Below are positions 1 through 13,232 of a stretch of 13,974 nt of DNA, one piece after another. The stretch spans positions 1-13,974 of the forward strand of contig JBHLRQ010000024.1 in the NCBI GenBank assembly GCA_048882385.1, in the 5' to 3' direction. This DNA comes from Candidatus Thorarchaeota archaeon. Its GTDB lineage: Archaea; Asgardarchaeota; Thorarchaeia; Thorarchaeales; Thorarchaeaceae. A program made the translations under genes and the position numbers. The notes beneath the pieces are model-generated. The model was not told the origin of the DNA and searched no databases. It saw only the letters and a program-made list of their open reading frames with translations. Position 1 is the stretch's first letter, and each line of letters begins with the position of its first letter.

Positions 1-962
1 AGATTCATGATTAGTGTGACTAGCATTGACCAACTAACAATGCTCAATCCGAAACCATGAACCGACGATAATACTCCACTCCTTGTGGTCCATGTTGCAA
101 AAATTACAGTGATGTAAGCCATAACAAGAAATGAATCTCGAATTATGTCATTGTTTCTGAGTGTTGGTTTCGCGTGATAGTAGGCTGTTATTAGCAACCA
201 AGGAATAAGGGAAGTTGTTTCGACAGGGTCCCAAGCCCAATAGCCTCCCCAACCAAGGACTAAATACGCCCAATAACCTCCAATTGCTATGCCAGCGGAC
301 AACATTATCCATGCTGCCGCTGTTGTCAGACGTGTGTATGCGTTCACCACTGGGATGGGATCCTGATTGCGTTCTTCAGATCTCATTGTGAATCCAGCTA
401 GCATCACTGCAAATGGTACGAGCGTTAGTGCATATCCAATGAAAATGATTGGTGGATGGATGACATTCCAAATAGTTGAAAGTAATGGATTCAAACCTAG
501 ACCATTAGTTCGCACAAGTTCTGTAGTGACTCGGAATGGATCCGTAAGCAATGTATTTACTGCTATAAGAATTGACTCTATGACCATGATTATTGCTGCT
601 CTATAGACAAGCTTGTCATCCTCATATCCCCGAGACACAATTCGGAAACCAAAATATAATCCAAATGACAAAAATGTCCAAAAAACAAGAGACCCAGACT
701 GTCCAGCCCAGAGGGCGGATATCTTTAACAATAAATCTGCACCGATTTCAGTTGTTTGATAGACATAATCATACTGAAATTGATTACTAAAGATCAAAAA
801 ACCAAGCCAAATTATCGCTCCAAGTGAAAGCAAGAAACTAACTACAGAAGCAATGAATGAATAGTTTTCATAATCCTTTATTCTTGGTCCAAGTATTAGA
901 ATAATGGCATCAAGAAGGCCAAGGATTACAATTGCAATCAAAAGAATTGTACCAATATCCAT
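1..962 (-). CDS. ccmF: Cytochrome c biogenesis protein CcmF (System I heme lyase), N-terminal ~320 aa, 3' end outside window
   Basis: Translated by hand (not in ORF track). ATG at 962-960 follows GGAGA RBS (975-971); starts MDIGTILLIAIVILG. Contains CcmF motifs KISALWAGQSGSLVFW, GLGLNPLLSTIWNVIHPPIIFIGY, WGGYWAWDPVETTSLIPWL (WWD domain, 251-216) and TTRSGVLSSVHGF; multiple hydrophobic helices. Confidence 0.95.
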   Translation of the reverse strand, partial: MDIGTILLIAIVILGLLDAIILILGPRIKDYENYSFIASVVSFLLSLGAIIWLGFLIFSNQFQYDYVYQTTEIGADLLLKISALWAGQSGSLVFWTFLSFGLYFGFRIVSRGYEDDKLVYRAAIIMVIESILIAVNTLLTDPFRVTTELVRTNGLGLNPLLSTIWNVIHPPIIFIGYALTLVPFAVMLAGFTMRSEERNQDPIPVVNAYTRLTTAAAWIMLSAGIAIGGYWAYLVLGWGGYWAWDPVETTSLIPWLLITAYYHAKPTLRNNDIIRDSFLVMAYITVIFATWTTRSGVLSSVHGFGLSIVSWSMLVTLIMN

Positions 963-984
963 CTTTAATTTCTCCTATGTATGT

Positions 985-3156
985 TTAATCTCTCCTCCTA
1001 GGCCCGCGACTTCTTGCACGTTTTCGCGCAGCTTTCTTCCCCGCACGTTGCGTTTCTCCACGATCCCTCCTACGCATCCTTGCATAGGCATAGCCCACAC
1101 CTGGTGCAGCTACCAGTCCCACAGTCGCAACTACCTGGAAGACTGTAAATGGTGTGATATTGAATTCAGGTCCAAGTATAGTTAGACTATAGTATCTACT
1201 CTCTCCTACATTACCAGACTCATCCATAACGAGACTGAAAAATGAAATCTGATCTCCCTCGTTGAATTGTCCTAATACATATCGCCAGATTATTCTGTCA
1301 TTTTCCACTCCAATAGGCGTCATATTAACTGCAGTATATACACCTGCATTCAATCTCCACCAAAGCTCACAAGAATTAGTGTGGCTATGAATGGGAAATT
1401 CAAATGTTTCCATATCTATTATAATCTCATCGCCAATCCTTATCGGACCAGCGGGATAGATTGCATGAAGTTCAGCAGTGGGAGGGAAGATATCTGTACG
1501 TACAATGAAGTAGTATGAGCCAGCTACGAAAGTCCGACCTGTTGTGTCATTAGCCACAACATCAAAATTCACTTGAGTGCCATCTTCAAAATAACTCAGC
1601 GAATTGTTGAACCTTCCTCCCACTTGGGGATTAGGCATTAATGGAAGGATACCTAGTGTGTCATTGTCTTCAAGGCTCGCTGTATAGTTGACATATACAT
1701 AATCAACACCATCATCATCTAGTACTGTAGCTGCGAAATAGATAATGTCTTGAGGACGCGGATCTGTAGGAGAGATCCTCACTTGAGTCACAATAGGCAA
1801 ACCATAAGCCCACGCACGCTCCAAACTAATTATTGCTAGGCCTTGCACTGTAGTATAATGCATTCTCCATTCGTCGCTGAGAACAACCCATTCTTGGTTG
1901 CCATTACTCACAAAGCCCTCAGAAGTAAAATCCCATAGTTTCCCCAAGATCAACTCAAAGGTGTCAATCACCATTCTAATAGGATATATTGAGTCGGTTA
2001 TGTCATACAAATCCTCCAGAGCCAGAGTCATCTGCATCTGAATCTCAGAATATTTGTAAAATTTCACATCTTCATCGTCAAGAGGATCATATGGTTGGCC
2101 ATCAACTACTTCTGCATACCAACCCCCAAAATCTTCATCCCAGTTATTTGAAAAAAGTGTTTCAAAGACTTCGTTTGCCACAGCTAAATAAGTTGTGTTC
2201 CCAGTCGCTACATATCCTTTAACTAGTGCTCTAATAGCCATGGCGTTGAGGTCAGTGACAACTGAATGCGCAACCCTATCGCCTTGTGGCACACTGACTG
2301 TTGAACCAGAACGGGTTACTGCCAGCTTCAGACCTCTGAATTCCATATCATAATAATACTTCATATGTGAAAGCATGAATGAAATTGCACTATCTGCTAT
2401 ACTCAGTAGGGTTGTATTCCCGGTCGACAAACCAGCATCGTAAAGCACGTTTGCACCAAGAACTAGATGATCCAACCTCTTCCCGTCATTAGGGTAAATT
2501 TCATCGAAATATGTAGGCACATTGAGTGACCCGTTCCGCATAGTGTAAAAATGGAATCCTCCATAGATTGGATCGTAGAGCATATCCGTCAAACATCTCA
2601 GCGCACTCTCCTTCTCTATTGTGAAATCAAGAGACGTATTGGTGGATTCTGCAATTTCAAGGGCCCAGTATGCGTAGGCTTGAACTCCGGGTCGTTTAGT
2701 TTCTCGAATTTCTACACCGGAAAAATAATTCACATAGAATCCGGGATATACTGGGTCCATTAAAGAATTCACCATTTCTGTTGCCGCTCTACTCATGGCA
2801 ATCTTGAATGTTTCATTGTTTGAAATAGAATAAGCAGTTGACAAAGCTGATATAGCCCAGTAATAGCTAGATAAAGCAGTGGTAGCAATATATGCTGATA
2901 AATCATGAGTAACTGAATGAAAAACTTCTCCTGATGCAAGATTCATGTGCTTTGCTACCAGTAAATCAGCTGTTGCTTCCACATAATCGATATACGAAGA
3001 AATATTGTATTCAAGTTCCTGTGATAGGAGAGGTATCTTTGTATTCTCTACACTATCTATTGTATACTCCGGAGTAACAGTGATGTTTGCACCCAGAGTC
3101 AGTACATTAAACATCACAAGGGCAAATATTGCAGTGAAGATGATTTTTTGTTTCAT
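985..3156 (-). CDS. Exported, C-terminally membrane-anchored protein: six-hairpin (alpha/alpha)6 barrel (AGE-epimerase/YyaL/GH76-like) plus two Ig-like beta domains
   Basis: 723-aa ORF. Signal peptide MKQKIIFTAIFALVMFNVLTLGA. Four repeats of the barrel loop motif (MDPVYPGF, YDPIYGGF, WDEDFGGW, WDFTSEGF) and two 'TGNTT.L..A' helices. Beta-rich C-terminal half, then TM helix (VFQVVATVGLVAAPGVGYAYA) and Arg/Lys tail. At least 13 N-x-S/T sequons. Family assignment is from motif recognition only. Confidence 0.7.
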   Translation of the reverse strand: MKQKIIFTAIFALVMFNVLTLGANITVTPEYTIDSVENTKIPLLSQELEYNISSYIDYVEATADLLVAKHMNLASGEVFHSVTHDLSAYIATTALSSYYWAISALSTAYSISNNETFKIAMSRAATEMVNSLMDPVYPGFYVNYFSGVEIRETKRPGVQAYAYWALEIAESTNTSLDFTIEKESALRCLTDMLYDPIYGGFHFYTMRNGSLNVPTYFDEIYPNDGKRLDHLVLGANVLYDAGLSTGNTTLLSIADSAISFMLSHMKYYYDMEFRGLKLAVTRSGSTVSVPQGDRVAHSVVTDLNAMAIRALVKGYVATGNTTYLAVANEVFETLFSNNWDEDFGGWYAEVVDGQPYDPLDDEDVKFYKYSEIQMQMTLALEDLYDITDSIYPIRMVIDTFELILGKLWDFTSEGFVSNGNQEWVVLSDEWRMHYTTVQGLAIISLERAWAYGLPIVTQVRISPTDPRPQDIIYFAATVLDDDGVDYVYVNYTASLEDNDTLGILPLMPNPQVGGRFNNSLSYFEDGTQVNFDVVANDTTGRTFVAGSYYFIVRTDIFPPTAELHAIYPAGPIRIGDEIIIDMETFEFPIHSHTNSCELWWRLNAGVYTAVNMTPIGVENDRIIWRYVLGQFNEGDQISFFSLVMDESGNVGESRYYSLTILGPEFNITPFTVFQVVATVGLVAAPGVGYAYARMRRRDRGETQRAGKKAARKRARSRGPRRRD

Positions 3157-3200
3157 AGTCTTTGATTCCTAACGGATTGTCTCGTGCGGATTTGCACTTC

Positions 3201-3216
3201 GTTTTTAAAATTCAGG
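3201..3216 (-). promoter_or_regulatory. Putative archaeal TATA box (TTTTAAAA) for the 723-aa gene/ccmF unit
   Basis: Minus strand reads CCTGAATTTTAAAAAC, about 45-55 nt upstream of ATG 3156 and downstream of the hairpin terminator of the preceding gene. Confidence 0.4.
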
Positions 3217-3245
3217 TTGTGGCTGTGTTGGACTTGTATGAGCTG

Positions 3246-3287
3246 AAAGAAAAAGGGTTCCAGATGCCGAAGCACCTGGTATTACCC
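3246..3287 (-). terminator. Hairpin + U-tract terminator downstream of the multiheme cytochrome gene
   Basis: Minus strand: GGGT-aata-CCAGGTGC-TTCG-GCATCTGG-a-ACCC-TTTTTCTTT. 8-bp stem (one G.U), C(UUCG)G tetraloop, outer 4-bp stem and U-rich tail, starting 26 nt after the stop at 3314. Confidence 0.75.
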
Positions 3288-3313
3288 ATACGAATGTTTG
3301 TTTCTAGCAGCGC

Positions 3314-4669
3314 CTATCGACGTCTGCCAACCAAAACTCCTAGGAGTAGGCCAACAACAATACCACCTGCGGCTCCACCAACGACAATCAGAGTATCAAA
3401 ACCTCCAACTGGTGTAGGTGTGGTAGGCTCAGGCATATTCTCGTAGAAGTATGCCTTTGCGTCAAGTAGATCTCTGAATGCACCATTCAATGCATCAAAT
3501 GTTTCCATTGGATCATGGAATCCGGAAGAGCCATCATAACCATAATAGCCTACAGTGGTTGAAGCATCGTCAACTATTCCTAGTACATAATCGACTAGTT
3601 CATAGTCTGCGTCAGCTGTTGCATTGTATTCCATTACGATTGTTTCGAATGCATCTGCTTCAGTAGTGAAGTCTGTTACAAGTGCATCGAATGATGACTG
3701 AATCTCTTCCATTTGGGTTAGAGCCCAGTCTAGTTGTCCTTCATGGCACGCAGTTTGATTACAGGCATCCTCTGGTAGAACAGAGAATGTATGGTTCATC
3801 TCTGGTCCATGGTCACCTTCACGGAAACCATGGCAAGATGTACACTCAACAATGCCTGTCAGGTCGTGTGGACCACCTTTCCAGACATCATAGGTTCCAT
3901 GACGACTTCCTGTGTGACAAAGACCACAGAGTTCTGTGGCATTGACAGCGCGGATCATCGCTGGGTTCGCTATGTCTGCTGAATGGACAGAGTGACATGC
4001 TGGACAAGTTAGGGGATTGTATGGTCCTGCAGGATCTAGATCCGCATCTTGGTCGAGGAATCCCTCAACTGACATGCAGTGCATACATTCTGATCCTGCG
4101 TGGCTACTTCCTCTGAGATCTGTTAGTGAGTTGGCATGAGCCGATTCAGTCCAACCGTCCAAGCCGCCATGTCCTTCATGGATATGACAACTGGCACAAT
4201 TCGAACCATTAACTGAATAATACGGAGAAGTTGCATCGTGACACGTGAAACAATTGGTTCCAAATCCGTCATGTGTATTCGGCCAATCCGTAACATTACG
4301 TTCTGGAGTCCAACCGATTGCGTGACACTGTGCACAACTTGCATTGAATTCAGTCATAGTCCTATTTCTGTGACCGTTGACTGTGATAGTATCTGAGTCC
4401 GGATCATATTCAATCAGATAACCGGAGTGGGTTGTCTGATTCCAATATGTCCATTCTTCGTTATGACAGGTACCATCCAGACAGCCGTTCCCATATGATG
4501 GGTCGGCTAGTTCATGCGCTTCACGTACTCTATCACTGAATATAGTGATAGGTATTCCAGATCCAGTAGGTCCTAGGAGTATAGCGAAACCAATCAAGCA
4601 GAGGAACAGGTAGTACCCTGCCACCAACCGCTTATTGACCCCTGGGGTCTCGTCAGTGTAGTACACCAT
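3314..4669 (-). CDS. Membrane-anchored multiheme cytochrome c (up to 9 hemes; NrfA/HAO-superfamily-like C-terminal helical region)
   Basis: Motifs in order: CLDGTCH, CAQCH, CFTCH, CASCH, CMHCM, CPACH, CGLCH, CTSCH, CNQTACH. Then long helices ending in DGSSGFHDP, a PT-rich linker (PEPTTPTP), a TM helix and RRR. Start moved from the track's GTG 4768 to ATG 4669 (GGTGA RBS upstream; N-terminal hydrophobic signal/anchor follows), giving 451 aa. Confidence 0.92.
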   Translation of the reverse strand: MVYYTDETPGVNKRLVAGYYLFLCLIGFAILLGPTGSGIPITIFSDRVREAHELADPSYGNGCLDGTCHNEEWTYWNQTTHSGYLIEYDPDSDTITVNGHRNRTMTEFNASCAQCHAIGWTPERNVTDWPNTHDGFGTNCFTCHDATSPYYSVNGSNCASCHIHEGHGGLDGWTESAHANSLTDLRGSSHAGSECMHCMSVEGFLDQDADLDPAGPYNPLTCPACHSVHSADIANPAMIRAVNATELCGLCHTGSRHGTYDVWKGGPHDLTGIVECTSCHGFREGDHGPEMNHTFSVLPEDACNQTACHEGQLDWALTQMEEIQSSFDALVTDFTTEADAFETIVMEYNATADADYELVDYVLGIVDDASTTVGYYGYDGSSGFHDPMETFDALNGAFRDLLDAKAYFYENMPEPTTPTPVGGFDTLIVVGGAAGGIVVGLLLGVLVGRRR

Positions 4670-4754
4670 TGGTTTTTTCACCATATTCCCAAGATTTGGG
4701 TTTGTAATTTCCCCAAGGCCCTCAATAAAAATTTGTTGCCTCCAATGTGGTTGT

Positions 4755-4998
4755 GTGTTAGCTAACACTTACAATTTGAAATAATCTGGTTACGGAAGGT
4801 TCAGCATCACCTGTCTTTATCTCATTTCTCGTACAATAAATAACCAACTTGGTTACAAAGTTGCTTTACCACTATAGTTAACCCAGATATTTGTAACCGG
4901 TTGTTTTTTGGTATTGAACAAAGTCTTTCAATCCGTAACATTTTAAGCAAGGCCATTTCCACACCGGCTCAATTATCCGGAGATCTATCCGGGATAAT
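4755..4998. promoter_or_regulatory. Divergent promoter region with several palindromes/inverted repeats
   Basis: Perfect 14-bp palindrome GTGTTAGCTAACAC (4755-4768); TAACCAA-C-TTGGTTA (4841-4855); GGTTACAAA (4851-4859)/TTTGTAACC (4890-4898); ATTATCC (4972-4978)/GGATAAT (4992-4998). TATA-like TTTTAAG at 4941-4947 (+). Confidence 0.55.
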
Positions 4999-5028
4999 GC
5001 CGACAATGTATTGTAAGCGGTGGCCTTC

Positions 5029-6237
5029 ATGAAACGAAATGTCAAAATTGGCCTTGTTGTTTTAGCAGTAACCGTTTTGTTGGTGTTTGGCGCAGTCAAT
5101 GTTTTTGCCAACCGTGATGTCGAATCTAACTGTGGAGGGTGCCACAGTGATCCGACTGGCATCACGCTCACAATGGCATCATCAATTGATGTAGAACCTG
5201 GCGAAACCTTTCAGCTTGATGTGACAGCATCCGGGCTGTCACAGGATGTATTTGTTCTGCGTATACCCGACAATGTTGATGATAATGCAGATTTCACGAT
5301 ATTAGTCCCTAACAATCCGAGTGATCCAGGACTAGTAAGTGATAATGACGCAAACGACCAAAACTCAGCTGCAAATGCTGTTCAAACAAGCTATAGCATC
5401 ACAGCTCCGGCTTTTGTAGGTCAATTCACTCTGACTGTATTTGCAGTTCAGCATACACCTGCAGGAGCTAGTAGTTCAATCACTGTCAATGTTATTCAAA
5501 CTGGTGCGGGTCCAACTATCGGACAACCTCAGACATCCCCTGATGTTCCACTCGCAAATGAGGATTTTGAAGTTTCAGTTGAAATTTCTTCTAATGAAAC
5601 AATAACATATGTCATTCTCCAATACAGCTTGGACAATGGAACCAGCTGGGAAAACATCACAATGACAGAGTCTGATGGAGTATATGTTGGTATAATACCA
5701 GCCAGTGTAAATAGTGCAAACGATATAGAGGTTCTTTGGAGAATAGTCGCTGCTGATGCTACTGGAACCGAGAGGGTTAGTGCACCACTGTCATATGTTG
5801 TAGGACAGGTTCCAGTTGAACCAATAGAATTACCTCAGTACCATTATGGCTGGCTACTTGGTGCACCAGCACTAGCGCTTGCATATCTTGGAACAGCTCT
5901 CGAATACTACGACGAAGAGAGATTCACACGAGCTCATGGGATTATGCTAAGTCTCGCCTACATTCTAACAACGATCAATGTACTTAGTCTATTCACAGAA
6001 CCAGCTGGTGCCTGGACAGCTATGAATCCGGTATACTTGTTTGATTTGAGTAACATACTTTTGTTCATGCACTCATGGCACATATGGCTGGGAATAATAA
6101 GCATGATACTTGGATCGCTTGCATTTCTAACTCATCTTGGTGGTTGGAAAACATGTAATCTTGGACTGCCTGCGGTTGTCCTTTGGACAATTCTTGGGAT
6201 AATGGGAATCTATCTCGGAGAAACCTTTGTGATGTGA
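5029..6237 (+). CDS. Exported monoheme cytochrome c (beta-sandwich/Reeler-like) + Ig-like domain + C-terminal His-containing ~4-TM domain
   Basis: ATG 5029 (GGTGG RBS; track uses GTG 5020), 402 aa. Signal peptide MKRNVKIGLVVLAVTVLLVFGAVNVFA, then CGGCH 8 residues after the predicted cleavage site. Two beta-rich domains. C-terminal TM helices carry His in RAHG, MHSWH and THLGG. Confidence 0.8.
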   Translation: MKRNVKIGLVVLAVTVLLVFGAVNVFANRDVESNCGGCHSDPTGITLTMASSIDVEPGETFQLDVTASGLSQDVFVLRIPDNVDDNADFTILVPNNPSDPGLVSDNDANDQNSAANAVQTSYSITAPAFVGQFTLTVFAVQHTPAGASSSITVNVIQTGAGPTIGQPQTSPDVPLANEDFEVSVEISSNETITYVILQYSLDNGTSWENITMTESDGVYVGIIPASVNSANDIEVLWRIVAADATGTERVSAPLSYVVGQVPVEPIELPQYHYGWLLGAPALALAYLGTALEYYDEERFTRAHGIMLSLAYILTTINVLSLFTEPAGAWTAMNPVYLFDLSNILLFMHSWHIWLGIISMILGSLAFLTHLGGWKTCNLGLPAVVLWTILGIMGIYLGETFVM

Positions 6238-6238
6238 G

Positions 6239-7723
6239 GTGAGTGATGTGACAGAAACAGAAGTAAACAAAGTACCCGAACCAGTACCTATTGAAGAAAC
6301 TCCTAGGGAGATAACAGTCCTTGATAAGCTTGCTGAGATTGTGACCGAAGAGAGGGTCACAGATTCTGAGCTGGAAAGGGTTGTATACAGTGGAGACCCC
6401 TCTTCACTTCCACAGTATCATTACAGGTGGAAAGGAAAATACCTCACAGATTATGTTGTCAGAGTTGAAAATGTGAACGAGATTGAAGGAGTGCTGAAGG
6501 TTGCGCGCGAACACAAGCTCCCTGTTATTCCGCGTGGAGGTGCATCGAGTTGCATGGGTTCTTCAAGTCCAAGTCGTGGGGGTATCTCTCTCGATATTAA
6601 ACCCATGAATAAGATTCTCGAAATCAATAAGGAAGCTGGATTTGTCCGCGTTGAGCCAGGAGTGACCTTTGAAAGACTCGATGATGAACTTAGCAAAGAT
6701 GGACTGACACTTGGTATCTATCCTTCAAGTGCCAAGTCTGCTGTTATTGGGGGATGGATTGCTTGCGGAGGTCGAGGTGGTATTGGTACTCCATATTATG
6801 GATCACTACGTGAACATACTCTGTCTCTGTCAGTTATTGGTGGAGATGGAGTTGTTAAGGTGGTCGAGGGAGACGAGATAGACCTTTTCCTTCATTCCTA
6901 TGGAATCCTTGGAGTCATCTTCGAGGTTAAGCTCCAGGTCCATGAGCTACAAACTGATTACAAGACTTTCAGTTATGGATTTGGTACATTGGAGGGGCTA
7001 TGCAATGCAATGGTGGAAATAGCTCGACTTGAACAAAAACCGGTCTATTTGAAAATCGCTGATGAAGAACTGCAAAAATACAGCAACCCTATCAGTGATG
7101 GGAAATATGTTCTGTCGGCAACTTACATCGATGCTTCGACAAAAGTACCCGCTGAGGATTTAAGCTCCATTACAGGTAAACATGGAGGAGTCCATCTTGG
7201 TGATGAGTTCTCAGAAAAGGAATGGGAACTTCGTTACGATGCAGAGTTCAATCCAAAGGAACACACAGAAACCTTGATGTTCCAAGAACTGTGGATACCA
7301 ATTGAAAACGTACATGAGATGCTCTCAGCTTATGAGTCATATCGAAGTTCTCACAAGATTCCAGCCCTCTGGTTTGGAATGCTTGGTACTCCTGAAGCTA
7401 TGAGACTTGAGCTAATGACTATGATTGATGCAGAACAGTATCTCAAGTTTATTGCCAGTAAAGGAATCTTGCATAAAATGATGAAGAAGGCTATCAAGAA
7501 CGGTGGTGTGCCATATACAATCGGACTTCAGAATTCAATATATATGACACGAGCATATCCCGATCGGTTAGTCCAAATGCAAGCCGCAAAAGAGAAGTGG
7601 GATCCTGACGGAATAATGAATCCAGACAGAGTAGTTAGCTGTTTGACTTCATACAGGAGAATAGATGTATTGTTCATCTTGGCTACAGCGTTCAGACGGC
7701 TGTCAAGATATGTGGGGAAGTGA
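6239..7723 (+). CDS. FAD-binding oxidoreductase, GlcD/Dld (VAO/PCMH) family, copy 1
   Basis: 494-aa ORF (alternative GTG 6248 after GAGGTGA). PCMH FAD-binding motifs PVIPRGGASS, VRVEPGV, YPSSAKSAVIGGWIA, SYGILGVI; C-terminal KEKWDPDGIMNPD. Confidence 0.9.
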   Translation: MSDVTETEVNKVPEPVPIEETPREITVLDKLAEIVTEERVTDSELERVVYSGDPSSLPQYHYRWKGKYLTDYVVRVENVNEIEGVLKVAREHKLPVIPRGGASSCMGSSSPSRGGISLDIKPMNKILEINKEAGFVRVEPGVTFERLDDELSKDGLTLGIYPSSAKSAVIGGWIACGGRGGIGTPYYGSLREHTLSLSVIGGDGVVKVVEGDEIDLFLHSYGILGVIFEVKLQVHELQTDYKTFSYGFGTLEGLCNAMVEIARLEQKPVYLKIADEELQKYSNPISDGKYVLSATYIDASTKVPAEDLSSITGKHGGVHLGDEFSEKEWELRYDAEFNPKEHTETLMFQELWIPIENVHEMLSAYESYRSSHKIPALWFGMLGTPEAMRLELMTMIDAEQYLKFIASKGILHKMMKKAIKNGGVPYTIGLQNSIYMTRAYPDRLVQMQAAKEKWDPDGIMNPDRVVSCLTSYRRIDVLFILATAFRRLSRYVGK

Positions 7724-7732
7724 GGTGTTACT

Positions 7733-8857
7733 ATGAATATCGATAATCTATCAGAAGTACTAAAGCACTGTGGGTCATGTAATTACTGCCGAGACACTTG
7801 TCCGATGTATATAGAGCTGCAATCTGAGCTTGATAGTCCCGGAGGTAAACTCCGAGCTCTCAGGGCTTATGCTACAAAGATGAGGAATCCACCTGTTGAA
7901 CTTCTGCAGAGACTTTACTGTGCAGACTGTCGAAGATGTGAGGCTATCTGTCCAGCAGGTGTTCCAGTCACGGATATCTGGCACGATGCCAAAAAACAGC
8001 TATTGAAGACAGGAGCTCCAATGTCAGAAGCACTTCAGAAGGTTCTTGATTGGATCGAACAGGAAGGTACTCCTTTCGTTGGTTATGAGCAAGATGATCG
8101 AACAGTATGGGCTGAAGATCTTGAGCTTCCCCCAGAGTCAAACACTGCTATCTTTTCAGGATGCATGGGATCATTTTGGTACCCCGATCAGCCCGAAACT
8201 GTAGTTGATATGTTACATAAACTGAAAGTGAACGCGGGATATGTTCCAAGTGAAGTTTGTTGTGGATTATTCAACTACTGGGCGGGCGATGACAAAGGAT
8301 TCGAAGAAGTAGTGAAGAAGAACTATGCGATGTTCAAGAAAGCTGGTGTGGATCACATTGTAACTGGATGCGGAGGGTGTTATGGAACCCTTGCTGAGCA
8401 CTATCCGCATATCATTCCAGATTTCGACATCACAATACTTCATACAGTTGAAGTCTTAGCAGATATGGTTCGGAATGGAGTACTAACATTTGATGGATTG
8501 GAGGGATCCTACACATTTCATGACAGTTGTCATCTTGGAAGAGCGCTTGGAATTTATGAAGCTCCTCGTGAGATTATCCGGGCGGTTCCAGGGTTAGAGT
8601 TTGTAGAAATGAAGAATAACCGTGACAAAAGCAATTGTTGCGGTGGATTCCTTACTGTACTTGATCCAAATCTGTCAGAGTCTGTAGGTAGAAGAAGAGT
8701 AGCTGAAGCAGAGGAACTTGGTGTGGATGGCATAATCACAACATGTGTTTCATGCTACAAGAATCTAAGTTACAATGCACGAGATACGAATCTAGAAGTA
8801 ATTCAACTCGATGAATTGATTCTAGACAAGGCTCGAGCCTCACAAGTGGAGGAGTAG
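7733..8857 (+). CDS. Fe-S oxidoreductase, GlcF/HdrD-like (2x[4Fe-4S] + two CCG domains), copy 1
   Basis: CGSCNYCRDTCP and CADCRRCEAICP ferredoxin motifs; CCG domains SGC..EVCCG..CGGC and HDSCH..NCCGG..CVSC. GAGGTG RBS overlaps the upstream TGA. Confidence 0.92.
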   Translation: MNIDNLSEVLKHCGSCNYCRDTCPMYIELQSELDSPGGKLRALRAYATKMRNPPVELLQRLYCADCRRCEAICPAGVPVTDIWHDAKKQLLKTGAPMSEALQKVLDWIEQEGTPFVGYEQDDRTVWAEDLELPPESNTAIFSGCMGSFWYPDQPETVVDMLHKLKVNAGYVPSEVCCGLFNYWAGDDKGFEEVVKKNYAMFKKAGVDHIVTGCGGCYGTLAEHYPHIIPDFDITILHTVEVLADMVRNGVLTFDGLEGSYTFHDSCHLGRALGIYEAPREIIRAVPGLEFVEMKNNRDKSNCCGGFLTVLDPNLSESVGRRRVAEAEELGVDGIITTCVSCYKNLSYNARDTNLEVIQLDELILDKARASQVEE

Positions 8858-8891
8858 TAAGAATTAACTAGGATAAATGGAGATGTCAACT

Positions 8892-10220
8892 ATGAGCAAA
8901 GAAAAAGGCACGAGAGTTGTAATCGTCGGCGGTGGAATCTCAGGATTCAGCTGCGCACTTGAATTAAAAGGACTAAAAGCACGATGTACGATTCTAGAGA
9001 AGGAAAAGACAGTTGGTGGTCGAGCTAGGTCCTATACTGAATCAGGATATGTGTTTGACCAAGGTTTGCACTTCTTCGTTGGTGGTTTCAAATCACTAAT
9101 TCCAATCCTTGAACGAAGTGGAGTGAGAATGACAACTGTTGGCGAAGGCGCAGTCTGGCTAAAGGATGGAGAGAGACACATCATCCGAAAATCAGCTGTT
9201 GAGTTGGCGAAGTTTGGTTTGTTACCTGCAACAGATCGAGCAAGACTCGGACTACTCGTTCAAGAAAACATTGGTCGGAAAGAAGAGGAGTTCAGAGAAT
9301 TAGATAATATGACATTCTCAGAATATGCAAACGACAAGAAGATTCCCGAAACGATTCAGAATGAGTTCTATGATCCACTAATACGAACAGTGACATTCAT
9401 GGACCCCTCTGAAGTTTCGGCAGGCCAATATCTCTACTCTGAACACCTAAGGTTTGCATATGAGGATGGATTCAGTGCGATGTATCCTGAGCGTGGAGGA
9501 TTAGGCAGTGTTGCCTACACGTTGATGCTTCAAGCTCGCAATTTTGGTGTTGAACCTCAAGTCAATTGTGCAGTTGACCAAGTTATAATCGAAAATGGTA
9601 AGGTTGTAGGTGTAGACTATACACAGAATGGGGAAACAAAGCATCTTGATACAGATGCCGTTGTATTGACAATTCCCATAGATCTAATCTACAACTTTGT
9701 CAAGAAAAGTGACTTGCCAAACGAGTTCAATCAAAAGATTTCCAAATTCGAATATGCTCCTTCCACTGTTGCATACTTTGGTCTGAAGTCTCGAGTACTT
9801 GATTTCAATGTTGGCGCATTCGTACCTGGCAGAAAGATCAATATCGTAGCTGAAGCCAAGAGAGTATCGGGAGTACTCGCACCCATTGGAGAATCACTCC
9901 TTACTGTGACTGGAATAGATAAGGAACTTCTCAAGATGAGCGATGAAGATGCAACTCAAGCTATCCTTGATGAGCTAGAGATTCTTGTTCCTGGAGTAAG
10001 TGAGAAGGTCACGTGGAAGAAGAGTTGGAAAATCTGGAAATCTGTTCTCAAACAGCCACCAGGAATTATGGGTGACAGATTGACATCCAATCGAACCGGT
10101 GTTGAAGGTCTCTATGTAGCAGGAGCTTATGCAAATTGCGGCATGTACTATGCCTCCATGGAAGCGGCTTCAAGATCAGGAATTGCCTGTGCTGGTGAAA
10201 TGATTAAGGATCTCAAATAG
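8892..10220 (+). CDS. FAD-dependent oxidoreductase, flavin amine oxidase superfamily (HpnE/phytoene desaturase/HemY-like)
   Basis: VVIVGGGISG Rossmann motif, LEKEKTVGGRARS, FDQGLHFF, C-terminal GLYVAGAY...SMEAASRSGIACA. Start chosen at ATG 8892 after GGAGA (alternatives 8877, 8883). Confidence 0.85.
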   Translation: MSKEKGTRVVIVGGGISGFSCALELKGLKARCTILEKEKTVGGRARSYTESGYVFDQGLHFFVGGFKSLIPILERSGVRMTTVGEGAVWLKDGERHIIRKSAVELAKFGLLPATDRARLGLLVQENIGRKEEEFRELDNMTFSEYANDKKIPETIQNEFYDPLIRTVTFMDPSEVSAGQYLYSEHLRFAYEDGFSAMYPERGGLGSVAYTLMLQARNFGVEPQVNCAVDQVIIENGKVVGVDYTQNGETKHLDTDAVVLTIPIDLIYNFVKKSDLPNEFNQKISKFEYAPSTVAYFGLKSRVLDFNVGAFVPGRKINIVAEAKRVSGVLAPIGESLLTVTGIDKELLKMSDEDATQAILDELEILVPGVSEKVTWKKSWKIWKSVLKQPPGIMGDRLTSNRTGVEGLYVAGAYANCGMYYASMEAASRSGIACAGEMIKDLK

Positions 10221-10239
10221 CCTAGTAGTAAGACACAAT

Positions 10240-10263
10240 TGCCAAGGGCAATGACCCTTGGCA
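10240..10263. promoter_or_regulatory. Perfect 9-bp inverted repeat (operator or RNA hairpin) in the internal intergenic gap
   Basis: TGCCAAGGG-CAATGA-CCCTTGGCA, immediately followed by TATA-like CTATATA (10267-10273); no U-tract. Confidence 0.5.
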
Positions 10264-10323
10264 TAACTATATACTCAGTGCGAGATAATCAAAAATAGGC
10301 ATCTCAATACGGTGACCTTCGTC

Positions 10324-11514
10324 ATGACCAAAACAGACTTCCTAGAAAAGTATGGACAAGAGGATGAACCGTATGTATGTGCTTCATGCGGAAATTGCAC
10401 TCTGGTGTGTCCAGTTTTCAGAGATCTAAAATGGGAGTCTTATGGTCCAAGAGGTAAATTACACATTGTTAAATCGATCATCGAAGGTGAAGGAAAATTC
10501 GGTGAAGACTTTGCTCATAGAATTTTCCTCTGCAACTTATGTGAACATTGCACATTTGTCTGCACAACTGGAATCCGTCTTGATAGATTTTGGGAGGTTA
10601 TCCGTGCAGAGGTTAGGCAACGAGGTTTGATGCCTAGGCCAGCTCAATTTGTATTAGATTCTGTAAAGTCTAGAGGAGACATAATGTGGATGGGTTCTTC
10701 TGATAGACTTCTTTGGATGGAAGAAATAGAGGATATAATTAAGGATAGAATTCTAAAACCAGCCAAAGTTGCATATTTTCTTGGATGTAATGTCGCTCTC
10801 AAATCTCAACTACATGATGTAGCCAAATCAATGATCAAAATCTTGGAATATGCAGAAGTCGATTACACTCTGCTAGCTGATAAGGAAGTGTGCTGTGGAG
10901 CTCCTCTTGGATGGGCAGGAAACTTCGAAGGTATTAATGAAATGGCCAAGAAAAACTTAGAGTTGATGAAAAGTCTTGGTGTTGAAACAGTAGTATTCAG
11001 TTGTCCTTCATGTATTCAGACATGGAAAGAATATAGTACATTTTTCCAGGAAGAATCTAGTATTGAGTTATTGTCTGCATCCCAATTCATTAAGAAACTC
11101 ATTCGTGAGAAACGACTAAAGTTTGAAGAACAGCCAATGGTCACTGTCACATTTCATGATCCATGTATCTCTGCCAGAGTACTGAACTGTATTGAAGAAC
11201 CACGTGAAATCATAGATGATATTCCAGGAGTCTATAATGTTGAAATGACTCCATCCAAAGAGCACACACGGTGTTGTGGGTCACACGGACTACTAGATGT
11301 TGTCGATCCAGTCCTCTCATCCAGAATCGCAGAGATGCGTCTGAGAGATGTAACTGTCACTCCAGCTACACGAGTCGTTACTGAATGTCCAAGGTGTATT
11401 CTTGGGTTTGACTTAGCTAAATTCACAACAGGATATGAGATGAAAATACAAGACATCACGCAACTTGTTGCAGAGTCTTTGTTACCAAAAGAGGGAGGCG
11501 ACAAAGACCAATGA
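10324..11514 (+). CDS. Fe-S oxidoreductase, GlcF/HdrD-like (2x[4Fe-4S] + two CCG domains), copy 2
   Basis: CASCGNCTLVCP, GPRGK, CNLCEHCTFVC; CCG domains LGC..EVCCG..CPSC and HDPC..RCCGS..CPRC. ATG 10324 follows GGTGA (track uses GTG 10312). Confidence 0.92.
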   Translation: MTKTDFLEKYGQEDEPYVCASCGNCTLVCPVFRDLKWESYGPRGKLHIVKSIIEGEGKFGEDFAHRIFLCNLCEHCTFVCTTGIRLDRFWEVIRAEVRQRGLMPRPAQFVLDSVKSRGDIMWMGSSDRLLWMEEIEDIIKDRILKPAKVAYFLGCNVALKSQLHDVAKSMIKILEYAEVDYTLLADKEVCCGAPLGWAGNFEGINEMAKKNLELMKSLGVETVVFSCPSCIQTWKEYSTFFQEESSIELLSASQFIKKLIREKRLKFEEQPMVTVTFHDPCISARVLNCIEEPREIIDDIPGVYNVEMTPSKEHTRCCGSHGLLDVVDPVLSSRIAEMRLRDVTVTPATRVVTECPRCILGFDLAKFTTGYEMKIQDITQLVAESLLPKEGGDKDQ

Positions 11515-13232
11515 AAATCAATGAGATTCGGATACAAGATATTGTCGGAGCGGACAATGTGTCAATTACTCATGAAACGTGCATGATGTACTCTAAAGAT
11601 GTAACAAGTCTACCCGACCTTGCATATCAAATTGTAAGCCCTAAATTTGATGTTATCACGCAACCAGTTGATGTACCATCTCTTCAGAACTTAGTTGAGT
11701 ACGCAATTGAAAGCAAAATTCCACTAGTACCAAGAGGGAATGGAACATCTGGATGGGGCGGAGCAATTCCAACCCGCGCAGGAATCTGTGTGGATCTCTC
11801 CGAATTGAATCGAATATTATACTTCAATGAGTTTGAATCCGCAGTGACAGTTGAATCAGGAATAACTTGGAGAGACCTACTATCTTTCCTGGAACGCCTT
11901 GGTTTCACATTACCAGTTTATCCATCAAGTGCTATAGCTGCAACCGTTGGGGGTTTTGTTGCAAGTGGGGGTTTAGGAATTGGTTCAACTCGGCATGGAG
12001 ATATTTTGAAGCAAGTCATTGGGATTGAAGCAGTTCTACCAAATGGAAAGCTAGTGAGGTTAGGAAAGCTCTTGCTTAATCCACAAGACGATACATTACT
12101 AGAAAACAGTGAGGAAGGAACAGCTTGGTTGAGTCAAATCCTATCAGAATCTGGTCTTGGGACACCGGAACAGGAATCAAAGCTAATTACTGGAACATAC
12201 GGAACATTGGGAATCATCACGAAGATTACATTAAAGACAATACCAAATCTCCAACTCATTCCTTTTGCCTGTTCATTCGATACTATAGAGGATTTAGTTA
12301 ACATCGCGAACAGAATCCGTTTAGACGTGCAACCGTATTTTTTGAGATTTCTTTCAGATAATTACACGTCAAAATTAAGATCGCTGAAAGACCAGGAACT
12401 TGAATATGGTAAATTCATTCTAACCGGTGCGCTTCTAGATACAATCTACCAAAATGAAGACAACATTGAGGTTATCAAAACTCTCACTCAGGAAGGTAAC
12501 GGAATACTATTGGATGACAGTCGAGCTTGGTTTTATTGGTCTGAGCGTCTGTATCCATTAAGGATTAAACGCCATGGACCAAGCCTAGTCCCTGCTGAAA
12601 TGCTTGCTCCTTTAGATATGCTACCTGAAATTCTAGAAAAGACAAAGGATGAACTCAGAAAATCAAAAGTAGCAATTGAGGGTACCCTCAACAACGATGG
12701 TAATACATCATTCATGGTCTGGATACTGGATGATGAAAGAAGGAAGTTTTCATTCACAATTGGATGGCATCGATCCTTCCAGATAGCATCGCTGGCTGAG
12801 AAGTTTGGAGGGTTGCCATATGCTGTTGGACTTTGGAATGGACGTCATGCTAGAAGGTACTATGGAAACCAATCATTTGAGGAACTCAAGATAATGAAGA
12901 GTAAATTAGATCCTCATAATCTCATGAACCCTGTCAAAGTATTTGGAGGTAGAGTGACTCCTGGTCGTGCCTCTTTACTTGCTGGATTTCTTCTAGGATT
13001 CTTTGCTGCACTCGTCATTCTATCTTTTGGTCCTAGTATTCTCGGTCTCACCTGGTTAAATCAGTTGCTAAATTCAAATTCCATCCCAATTATTGGAATT
13101 CCTAATTTCATGTTTTTATCCGTGTTTGGAGGGCTTCTGGGAATTCTCATAATAAGACTAATGACACTTAATCAAGCTCTTGCTCTTGGTATCCCTTTGT
13201 TACGCTTCCTTAGTAAGATACTAAGAAAATGA
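11511..13232 (+). CDS. FAD-binding oxidoreductase, GlcD/Dld family, copy 2, with C-terminal membrane helices
   Basis: 573 aa; ATGA overlap with the upstream stop. PLVPRGNGTSGWGG, YPSSAIAATVGGFVASGG, GTYGTLGIITK, KSKLDPHNLMNPVK, then a ~95-aa extension with two hydrophobic segments. Confidence 0.9.
   Translation: MKINEIRIQDIVGADNVSITHETCMMYSKDVTSLPDLAYQIVSPKFDVITQPVDVPSLQNLVEYAIESKIPLVPRGNGTSGWGGAIPTRAGICVDLSELNRILYFNEFESAVTVESGITWRDLLSFLERLGFTLPVYPSSAIAATVGGFVASGGLGIGSTRHGDILKQVIGIEAVLPNGKLVRLGKLLLNPQDDTLLENSEEGTAWLSQILSESGLGTPEQESKLITGTYGTLGIITKITLKTIPNLQLIPFACSFDTIEDLVNIANRIRLDVQPYFLRFLSDNYTSKLRSLKDQELEYGKFILTGALLDTIYQNEDNIEVIKTLTQEGNGILLDDSRAWFYWSERLYPLRIKRHGPSLVPAEMLAPLDMLPEILEKTKDELRKSKVAIEGTLNNDGNTSFMVWILDDERRKFSFTIGWHRSFQIASLAEKFGGLPYAVGLWNGRHARRYYGNQSFEELKIMKSKLDPHNLMNPVKVFGGRVTPGRASLLAGFLLGFFAALVILSFGPSILGLTWLNQLLNSNSIPIIGIPNFMFLSVFGGLLGILIIRLMTLNQALALGIPLLRFLSKILRK

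Follow-up and report, generated by a model that had tools for sequence, protein, structure and literature searches.

The window studied here is a stretch of 13,974 nucleotides of contig JBHLRQ010000024.1 (assembly GCA_048882385.1) from a Candidatus Thorarchaeota archaeon. It carries, on its minus strand at 3314..4768, a gene for a nonahaem c-type cytochrome resembling OcwA of Thermincola potens. The fifth of the nine haem sites in this protein reads CMHCM, placing a methionine at the position usually held by the proximal histidine or lysine of a haem c motif. The methionine is kept in most close relatives and alternates with histidine among more distant ones, and we interpret it as the probable proximal ligand of a covalently attached haem.

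The cytochrome gene and its fifth haem site

The open reading frame (ORF) comprises 484 codons from a GTG at 4768. The start of the gene is likely the ATG at 4669 (M34), which gives a product of 451 residues; the database holds an identical protein (P0004, 100% from M34). With eight CX2CH or CX4CH sites, one variant site and an N-terminal hydrophobic helix, the product has the make-up of a multihaem cytochrome, and the Pfam families above cut-off, Cytochrome_C7 and Cytochrome_C554, are generic multihaem domains only. All nine sites lie on the minus strand. Site 1 (C96-x4-C101-H102, 4463..4483) is CxxCH in many relatives. A motif scan and alignment place sites 2 to 4 at 4322..4336 (CAQCH, C145), 4238..4252 (CFTCH, C173) and 4184..4198 (CASCH, C191), and sites 6 to 9 at 3992..4006 (CPACH, C255, followed by an invariant H262), 3914..3928 (CGLCH, C281), 3830..3844 (CTSCH, C309) and 3743..3763 (C336-x4-C341-H342).

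Haem site 5 lies between these at 4073..4087, where the minus-strand bases 4087..4073 read TGT ATG CAC TGC ATG in frame and encode C228-M-H230-C231-M232 within the peptide ...GSECMHCMSVEGF.... An earlier, sequence-only reading of the window had reported this motif as the fifth of nine, in the context W206..S209.H211...ECMHCMSVEGF and three base changes away from a histidine codon. All of this holds: the minus-strand letters and their translation give the motif, the listing of nine Cys-pair sites makes it the central one, the context reads as quoted, and CAY and ATG differ at all three codon positions. Both a DNA contig from an independent run (X2 record 29, 3348-4139) and a contig from an RNA library (X12 record 9, 3414-4124) cover the motif with 0 differences, and the closest listed variant is at position 4100. 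RNA contigs from three libraries of one study cover parts of the cytochrome gene, one of them spanning the motif; this is only a hint that the gene is transcribed, as the data are contigs and DNA carry-over is possible even for the gene itself. The RNA runs were picked by the cytochrome gene, and their contigs, of which none lies on 1-3306 or 4699-5200, are uninformative on the expression of neighbouring genes.

The site can be placed on haems of known structure. In a single-sequence phmmer search of the PDB the best match is 6i5b, OcwA of T. potens (E 3.8e-9), and GSECMHCMSVEGFL lies on OcwA AQDRCLKCHSAEAYL, the motif of OcwA haem 5 (CLKCH). In a profile alignment these columns fall on CLNCKT in the octahaem nitrite reductase of Thioalkalivibrio (TvNiR) and on CLECHS in 6qvm; the profile E value of 4.7e-62 to 6i5b is inflated, alignment A1 including the OcwA construct itself (P0200), and the profile was used for residue correspondence only. 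An AlphaFold2 (AF2) model of the cytochrome built on a 66-row alignment (predicted local distance difference test score 83.2, predicted template modelling score 0.72) also finds 6i5b as its top Foldseek hit (E 5.1e-11, template modelling (TM) scores 0.56/0.52, ~17% identity in the structural alignment), followed by an undecahaem S-layer cytochrome and then by octahaem and pentahaem nitrite reductases. A putative distal pocket of haem 5, R289-H290-G-T-Y293 (3890..3904, minus strand), is indicated by alignment of S-R289-H290-G-T-Y with QHPEYE of NrfA (phmmer) and with HHPHKE of OcwA and QHPEAE of TvNiR (profile). In the published account of OcwA, haems 5–9 can be laid over the haem core of NrfA, haem 5 being the active site, haems 2 and 5 are described as penta-coordinate putative active sites with a proximal His and an open distal position, and a His-His pair is reported above the distal face of haem 5 (PMC6703420). 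By homology CMHCM is placed at the catalytic-type haem of the superfamily, where NrfA has CXXCK; the guess in the sequence-only reading that a catalytic haem is concerned gains support from OcwA haem 5, the CLNCK of TvNiR and the distal His at H290.

The putative ligands of haem 9 can be compared in the same way. An invariant His301 ('GGPH', window 3866-3868) aligns in the profile alignment with the Met of 'SVMYKAG' in OcwA, whose haem 9 is reported to be His/Met ligated (PMC6703420). Haem 9 is probably bis-His here, the ligand Met of OcwA being our own assignment; if that Met is the ligand, the family would differ from OcwA in having bis-His instead of His/Met at haem 9 and Met instead of His at haem 5.

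Both ends of the protein are hydrophobic. An N-terminal helix, R47..P67 (4568..4630, minus strand; AF2 helix 13-31 of P0004), is a putative signal-anchor and is unusually conserved, and a C-terminal helix, L460..G481 (3326..3391, minus strand; AF2 helix 425-449 of P0004), is followed by RRR and is a predicted membrane anchor. The cytochrome would be an OcwA-like oxidoreductase at the cell surface, anchored outside the membrane. In the N-terminal segment of residues 34-73 (window 4568-4669), conservation reaches 93% or more at 25 of the 40 positions (e.g. MVYY, GYYLFL, LLGPTGSGIP). This segment may touch a membrane partner from which the cytochrome receives electrons; among the operon genes none is apparent.

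Residues at the site in close and distant relatives

A word-indexed search returned 116 proteins, the named ones being mostly proteins of metagenome-assembled genomes of Thorarchaeota or Promethearchaeota and often labelled by the annotation pipeline PGAP as 'ammonia-forming cytochrome c nitrite reductase subunit c552'. The close-family alignment has 117 rows: 115 clusters besides the window ORF and its twin P0004. Column 228 is Cys in all 115 non-gap rows, column 229 is Met in 114, Leu in 2 and Ser in 1, columns 230 and 231 are His and Cys in 117/117, and column 232 is Met in 105, Gln in 11 and Leu in 1. The sequence-only reading had left two outcomes for this position, a Met conserved in a clade or, in close orthologues, CxxCH or random residues; it is the former that we find. 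Conservation in the close family extends to the segment around the site, W206..F237, and to the distal stretch, with position 290 being His in 97 rows, Tyr in 11 and Gln in 3, and position 289 Arg in 73 and His in 32. Whether position 232 is Met or Gln shows no clear pattern of covariation with positions 227, 289-291 or 223.

Among 301 genomes sampled from the phylum, 48, one of them the window's own, have a match at E <= 1e-10; by the two main families the counts are 32/76 and 14/21, and in the window's own genus 12/24. The best 30 loci from other genomes of the phylum read CMHCM (25), CMHCQ (3), CLHCM (1) and CMRCH (1), so that C-x-H-C-M/Q is found in 29 of the 30.

The family was widened by an exhaustive search of cluster representatives and an indexed search seeded by the nearest CxxCH-type relative, which added a clade with Hodarchaeota-named members and a clade with one Bathyarchaeota-named member. 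Of 280 homologues aligned to the family profile, 248 have both Cys at the site and 32 are fragmentary or gapped there and were left uncounted; the alignment of the distant members was built on the close-family profile. The residue after the second Cys (Cys2) is Met in 161, His in 64, Gln in 11, Lys in 6, Val in 3, Leu in 2 and Arg in 1 of these related and partly redundant sequences. Met, His or Lys, all three of them known haem c ligands, account for 231/248 (93%), and both Cys are retained in all 161 Met forms. CLSCM, CLTCM, CLRCM and CLQCM are common in a sister clade. The same site reads CXXCK in relatives P0281-P0283, P0141, P0204 and P0165 (CLTCK, CFSCK, CVACK, CLHCK), and therefore His, Met and Lys all occur at it within the nonahaem-type family.

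A tree of 126 full-length rows, from a quick IQ-TREE search under LG+G4 with branch support by the Shimodaira–Hasegawa-like approximate likelihood-ratio test only and a midpoint root, requires at least 15 changes of the character 'Met after Cys2' and at least 13 of 'His after Cys2', some of them between close relatives. P0247 (CLRCH) stands beside P0249 and P0251 (CLSCM), CEQCH and CMQCH are nested among CLSCM forms, and P0120 (CMYCH) is nested in the Thorarchaeota family. As far as these sequences tell, Met is a recurrent switch and not a fixed state, more distant members of the clade carrying CxxCH. The swapping of His and Met, occasionally with Lys or Gln, looks like the tuning of one ligand position. 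Gln, Lys, Leu, Val and Arg lie one or two base changes away from ATG or CAY and can therefore be stations or side-steps of the three-change exchange between His and Met.

The operon, the maturation genes and their neighbourhood

The cytochrome gene is followed on the minus strand by two further genes of its operon. The second (985..3156) encodes a surface protein of 723 residues without a Pfam family, predicted to consist of an (alpha/alpha)6-barrel, C-terminal beta domains and a transmembrane anchor; a structure search of the Atlas gives the AGE/cellobiose-2-epimerase fold (TM score 0.48 by query and 0.82 by hit). The gene stands between the cytochrome gene and ccmF in 6/6 related loci, and its product might assist in maturing the cytochrome or act as its partner. 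The third gene (3..962) encodes a haem lyase of the CcmF/NrfE family (PF01578, E 2.3e-25), of which the N-terminal 320 residues are present before the contig ends; full-length CcmF relatives have ~700 residues, and a CcmF gene belongs to the cytochrome operon in 6/6 related loci. One full-length CcmF relative scores 173 bits with TIGR03145 (NrfE subfamily) and 151 bits with TIGR00353 (generic CcmF/NrfE), both far below the cut-offs and uninformative for subtype.

The genes ccmA, ccmB, ccmC and ccmE are found on the same contig ~16 kb away (C24 ~20.4-23.0 kb). CcmE is of the Cys type (...SCPSRYEA, with CPSRY), and CcmH (PF03918) was not found in the 95.3%-complete genome. The archaeal System I* is described as having a Cys for the haem-binding His of CcmE and as lacking CcmH (PMC3601427). 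Because the CcmE is of the Cys type and CcmH was not found, the gene set matches System I* as judged from the predicted proteins. The two PF01578 (Cytochrom_C_asm) matches of the genome are CcmC and one CcmF, with no second CcmF/CcsA paralogue among the genes up to the contig end. E. coli is reported to require NrfEFG for CXXCK (PMC12285233, PMC3601427), and Shewanella reportedly handles CXXCK with its general CcmF (PMC12285233). No other ORF of the genome has more than two CxxCH motifs, which makes the cytochrome its sole multihaem one, and the whole maturation system seems to serve a single protein.

On the other side of the cytochrome gene, a plus-strand ORF of 405 codons (5020-6237) runs divergently from it and is kept in 5/6 related loci. 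It has weak BatD/DUF11-like and 'choice-of-anchor' matches, and its product, too, is probably located at the surface. The space that separates the cytochrome-ccmF operon from ccmABCE is filled by a tandem array (6239-13232 and on to C24 ~20.3 kb; L004 959-7272) of four GlcD-like flavin adenine dinucleotide (FAD) oxidases (FAD_binding_4 + FAD-oxidase_C), four CCG/4Fe-4S proteins (GlcF/HdrD-like) and one amine-oxidase-type flavoprotein. The first part of the array is syntenic in related loci, and the array as a whole may form a module that oxidises 2-hydroxyacids and is linked to the cytochrome. In one related locus from Thorarchaeota (L009 12840-15198) a gene of the geranylgeranyl-reductase family and a polyprenyl synthase follow ccmF; in the window this region would fall beyond the contig end.

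Ligation of haem 5 and comparison with known cytochromes

We favour, with a probability of about 0.55, the reading that CMHCM belongs to a real CXXCM haem c motif in which Met232 is the proximal ligand. We do so because the position is homologous to that of the proximal ligand in known cytochromes, both Cys are present in every Met form, 93% of homologues have a ligand-capable residue there, His and Met have been exchanged repeatedly, and a reactive haem with a Met ligand is already reported for NrfH. The two invariant Cys would still form thioether bonds to haem 5, the homologue of OcwA haem 5 and NrfA haem 1, and Met232, at the usual position of the proximal His or Lys, would give its thioether sulphur to the iron. 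The distal side, lined by R289 and H290, would be left open or weakly occupied for substrate, making haem 5 a reactive, probably five-coordinate terminal haem with a likely catalytic role. By general haem chemistry, a neutral, softer proximal ligand would be expected to raise the potential of the terminal haem and to alter its substrate chemistry as compared with the His and Lys forms. The invariant His230 would most likely be a clade-specific residue of the second sphere. Attachment of the haem would fall to the organism's single CcmH-less archaeal Ccm system, the CcmF gene of which lies in the same operon.

Modelling is consistent with this proposal. In the AF2 model, a weak and biased predictor in this respect, C-M-H-C lies in a short helix (193-198 of P0004) as canonical sites do. 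A crude steric model, in which a short peptide was fitted in torsion space to an idealised porphyrin with standard bond lengths and angles, gives strain-free solutions for the canonical motif and lets the Met after Cys2 reach the iron with a penalty of 0.2 in the native orientation, itself assigned by an argument from helix handedness. The model discriminates weakly: for each of CxxCH, CxxCM, CxHC, CHxC and CxxCxH the penalty falls almost to zero in two or more of the four combinations of orientations. Within its limits neither Met nor inner-His ligation is sterically excluded.

Several points weigh against ligation by Met232. The haem on the CMHCM peptide and the Met on its iron are both deduced from sequence. 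The Ccm system of E. coli is reported to fail to mature cytochrome b562 variants with engineered CXXCK, CXXCM or CXXCR motifs (PMC4158909, citing Allen 2005), and the genome, with one CcmF-type gene, gives no sign of a dedicated second lyase. Within the motif His230 (117/117) is more conserved than Met232 (105/117), and the residue after Cys2 can also be Gln, Leu or, in relatives, Val, of which Val and Leu are unable to ligate iron. Proteins of the Hodarchaeota-type clade keep CLHCM but have a degenerate distal 'HHP' stretch, and because of this the haem 5 site, judged by alignment, is not NrfA-like throughout the family. The tallies over the 248 homologues are counts of kin and not of independent events, and the numbers of exchanges come from a quickly made tree.

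Four other explanations were weighed. It is possible, but unlikely, that haem 5 is attached and no residue of its motif ligates the iron, for which a remote residue or the distal-side His290 would serve as ligand while Met, Gln, Leu or Val occludes the other face. The range of residues after Cys2 does resemble that of a packing position, His290 is kept in 97 of the 111 rows without a gap there, and the octahaem tetrathionate reductase of Shewanella is reported to have a Lys ligand from outside the motif (PMC12285233). A packing position would nevertheless be expected to vary more than one that is Met, His or Lys in 93% of homologues, and Gln, Leu, Val, Lys and Arg can each be reached from ATG or CAY in one or two base changes and can therefore be by-products of the switch. 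His290 itself is replaced by Tyr or Gln in 14 rows, and its stretch is lost in many CLHCM and CLSCM relatives. No covarying remote residue was found among the positions compared, which did not amount to a systematic covariation scan.

Less likely again is that haem 5 is attached and that it is His230 which is essential, either as iron ligand or as a residue needed by the CcmF lyase, with Met232 only packing. In Thorarchaeota and Hodarchaeota the inner His, and not the Met, would then bind the iron or be gripped by the CcmH-less lyase, and the motif would be an undescribed 'CXHC' form of haem c attachment. Such a mode would agree with the invariance of His230 beside a position 232 that varies between Met, Gln and Leu, and it would side-step the reported failure of E. 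coli Ccm on motifs without His. The inner His is found in 155 of the 184 homologues without His after Cys2 and in 1 of the 64 with it, and revertants to CxxCH within the clade are without it (P0120 CMYCH, L041 CMRCH, P0125 CVRCH). In the steric model inner-His ligation is free of penalty in two of the four orientation combinations. The best fit of 'CXHC', however, has the haem flipped from its canonical orientation, the penalty rises to ~30 in the orientation taken as native, and the controls CHxC and CxxCxH pass as well; the AF2 model retains the canonical helical CxxC turn. Met occurs without the inner His in 15 CLSCM sequences, among them the Bathyarchaeota-type relatives, and in 5 further CxxCM sequences (with K in two and T, R and Q in one each), and therefore the inner His is not needed for the Met form. 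Of 8 phylogenetically independent pairs with His after Cys2 in one member and not in the other, only 1-2 are also unlike at the inner position, and a sign test is not significant. With these contrasts and the many CLSCM sequences, a rule of one His per motif, either between the Cys or after Cys2, was dropped. On the tree the inner His changes 6 times; it is, on this evidence, an addition that arose a few times on a Met background and became fixed in the Thorarchaeota and Hodarchaeota clades. The sequence-only reading had offered two forms of the atypical haem, one Met-proximal and one ligated by the internal His: the former remains the best reading, His and Met alternating at the exact position, and the latter finds no support in the independent contrasts or in the CLSCM relatives that have no such His.

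Slimmer still is the chance that haem 5 has been lost and that C-x-H-C-M has become a disulphide or a small metal site, for example for copper, at the end of an eight-haem chain. Haem 5 of OcwA is at an end of the chain and its loss would leave the wire intact, Cys, His and Met are typical copper ligands, octahaem relatives have been proposed to arise by loss of haem 2 or haem 5 (PMC6703420), and CXXCM is the very motif that E. coli Ccm reportedly leaves immature (PMC4158909). The exact CxxC spacing of all 161 Met forms, interleaved on the tree with CxxCH forms whose motifs are ordinary haem sites, would however demand repeated loss and regain of a haem among close relatives, which is unparsimonious; the segment W206..F237 and the distal stretch stay conserved, and CLSCM relatives are without the His that a metal site would want. 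Finally, a sequencing or assembly error or a decaying gene has a negligible chance and is ruled out by the cluster alignment, the phylum loci and the independent contigs: the same motif recurs in 115 other protein clusters from many assemblies and in 29/30 loci of other genomes, DNA and RNA-library contigs match exactly across it, ATG is three base changes from CAY, the reading frame is open and synteny is kept.

A full-text search of the literature, its scope being papers outside subscription journals, without supplements or structures lacking a paper, returned no natural CXXCM haem motif, only the engineered variant and papers on unrelated CXXC domains. Queries for CMHCM, CLHCM, CXHCM, CXHC and CX2CM gave nothing relevant, and those for multihaem cytochromes of Asgard archaea or Thorarchaeota gave, among the matches listed, surveys only. 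We have thus found no report of natural CXXCM as a variant of the haem c motif conserved across many archaeal relatives. If true, the Met form, present in 161/248 homologues, would add a third natural form beside His and Lys, and the alternation of His and Met in close relatives would offer natural pairs with which to examine the effect of the ligand on potential and substrate chemistry. It also raises a question of maturation, as one CcmH-less system with one CcmF appears to serve CX2CH, CX4CH and CXXCM sites, the last of which System I of E. coli reportedly rejects. A phylogeny of the superfamily, as described in a preprint (10.1101/2022.02.24.481543), filtered sequences by a list of motifs given there without CX2CM; under a filter of this kind such proteins would be miscounted and their haems undercounted in surveys. 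Since this Asgard archaeon has no other multihaem cytochrome c, the chemistry of the protein bears on what such organisms can respire.

Automatic annotation labels such proteins nitrite reductases, yet several defining features of NrfA are lacking. No NrfA family model is among the NCBIfam matches of P0004, PF02335 is not among the matches of P0001 at E <= 0.01 though it is precomputed for many relatives, and no NrfH or NrfB/NrfBCD partner was found in the 95%-complete genome, where no other ORF has more than two CxxCH. In NrfA a long loop leads from the haem 3 motif to the catalytic His and carries the Tyr and the Ca site; it is absent here, H285 and H290 being separated by four residues. The catalytic His, Tyr and Arg of NrfA are given as H282, Y217 and R113 of S. 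deleyianum (preprint 10.1101/2022.02.24.481543). The first aligns with H290, and the Tyr and Arg could not be aligned, the Tyr segment having only 4 residues here. Because there is no CXXCK, no NrfA model, no NrfH or NrfB and no room for the Tyr/Ca loop, and because there are nine haems, the label 'nitrite reductase' of the relatives is not established.

Among known systems OcwA is the closest. It is the best match in both sequence and fold, has its nine haem sites in the same order, and shares the C-terminal three-helix bundle (AF2 helices 313-349, 356-378 and 387-410 of P0004), the His-containing distal stretch at haem 5 and a probable location outside the cell. It differs in that its haem 5 motif is CLKCH with a proximal His, whereas the archaeal protein has CMHCM, and in that its distal pair is H-H, in contrast to R-H here (H-H in 32 family rows). 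OcwA is also Gram-positive bacterial, whereas this cytochrome is archaeal and has transmembrane helices at both ends. NrfA and the octahaem nitrite reductases are alike in having the proximal His swapped for another ligand-capable residue, as in the CLNCK of TvNiR (PDB 2ot4) at the homologous position, and in the catalytic His of 'QHPE' that aligns with H290, but the residue is Lys and not Met and the haems number five or eight, not nine. That this proximal ligand can be exchanged, naturally and by laboratory mutation, with activity retained is reported for the CXXCH haem 1 of Campylobacter jejuni NrfA and for the K134H variant of W. succinogenes (PMC13562315), examples that, as described, compare Lys and His only and make no mention of a Met form. 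The nearest precedent for the ligand itself comes from NrfH, a small and unrelated membrane quinol dehydrogenase. Haem 1 of Desulfovibrio vulgaris NrfH is reported to be penta-coordinate and bound by the Met of CXXCHXM (PMC8840924), a case in which a reactive haem c has, as its one protein ligand, a Met close to the attachment motif; there, however, the motif is still CXXCH and the Met stands three residues past Cys2, whereas in the archaeal cytochrome it stands at the position of the His itself.

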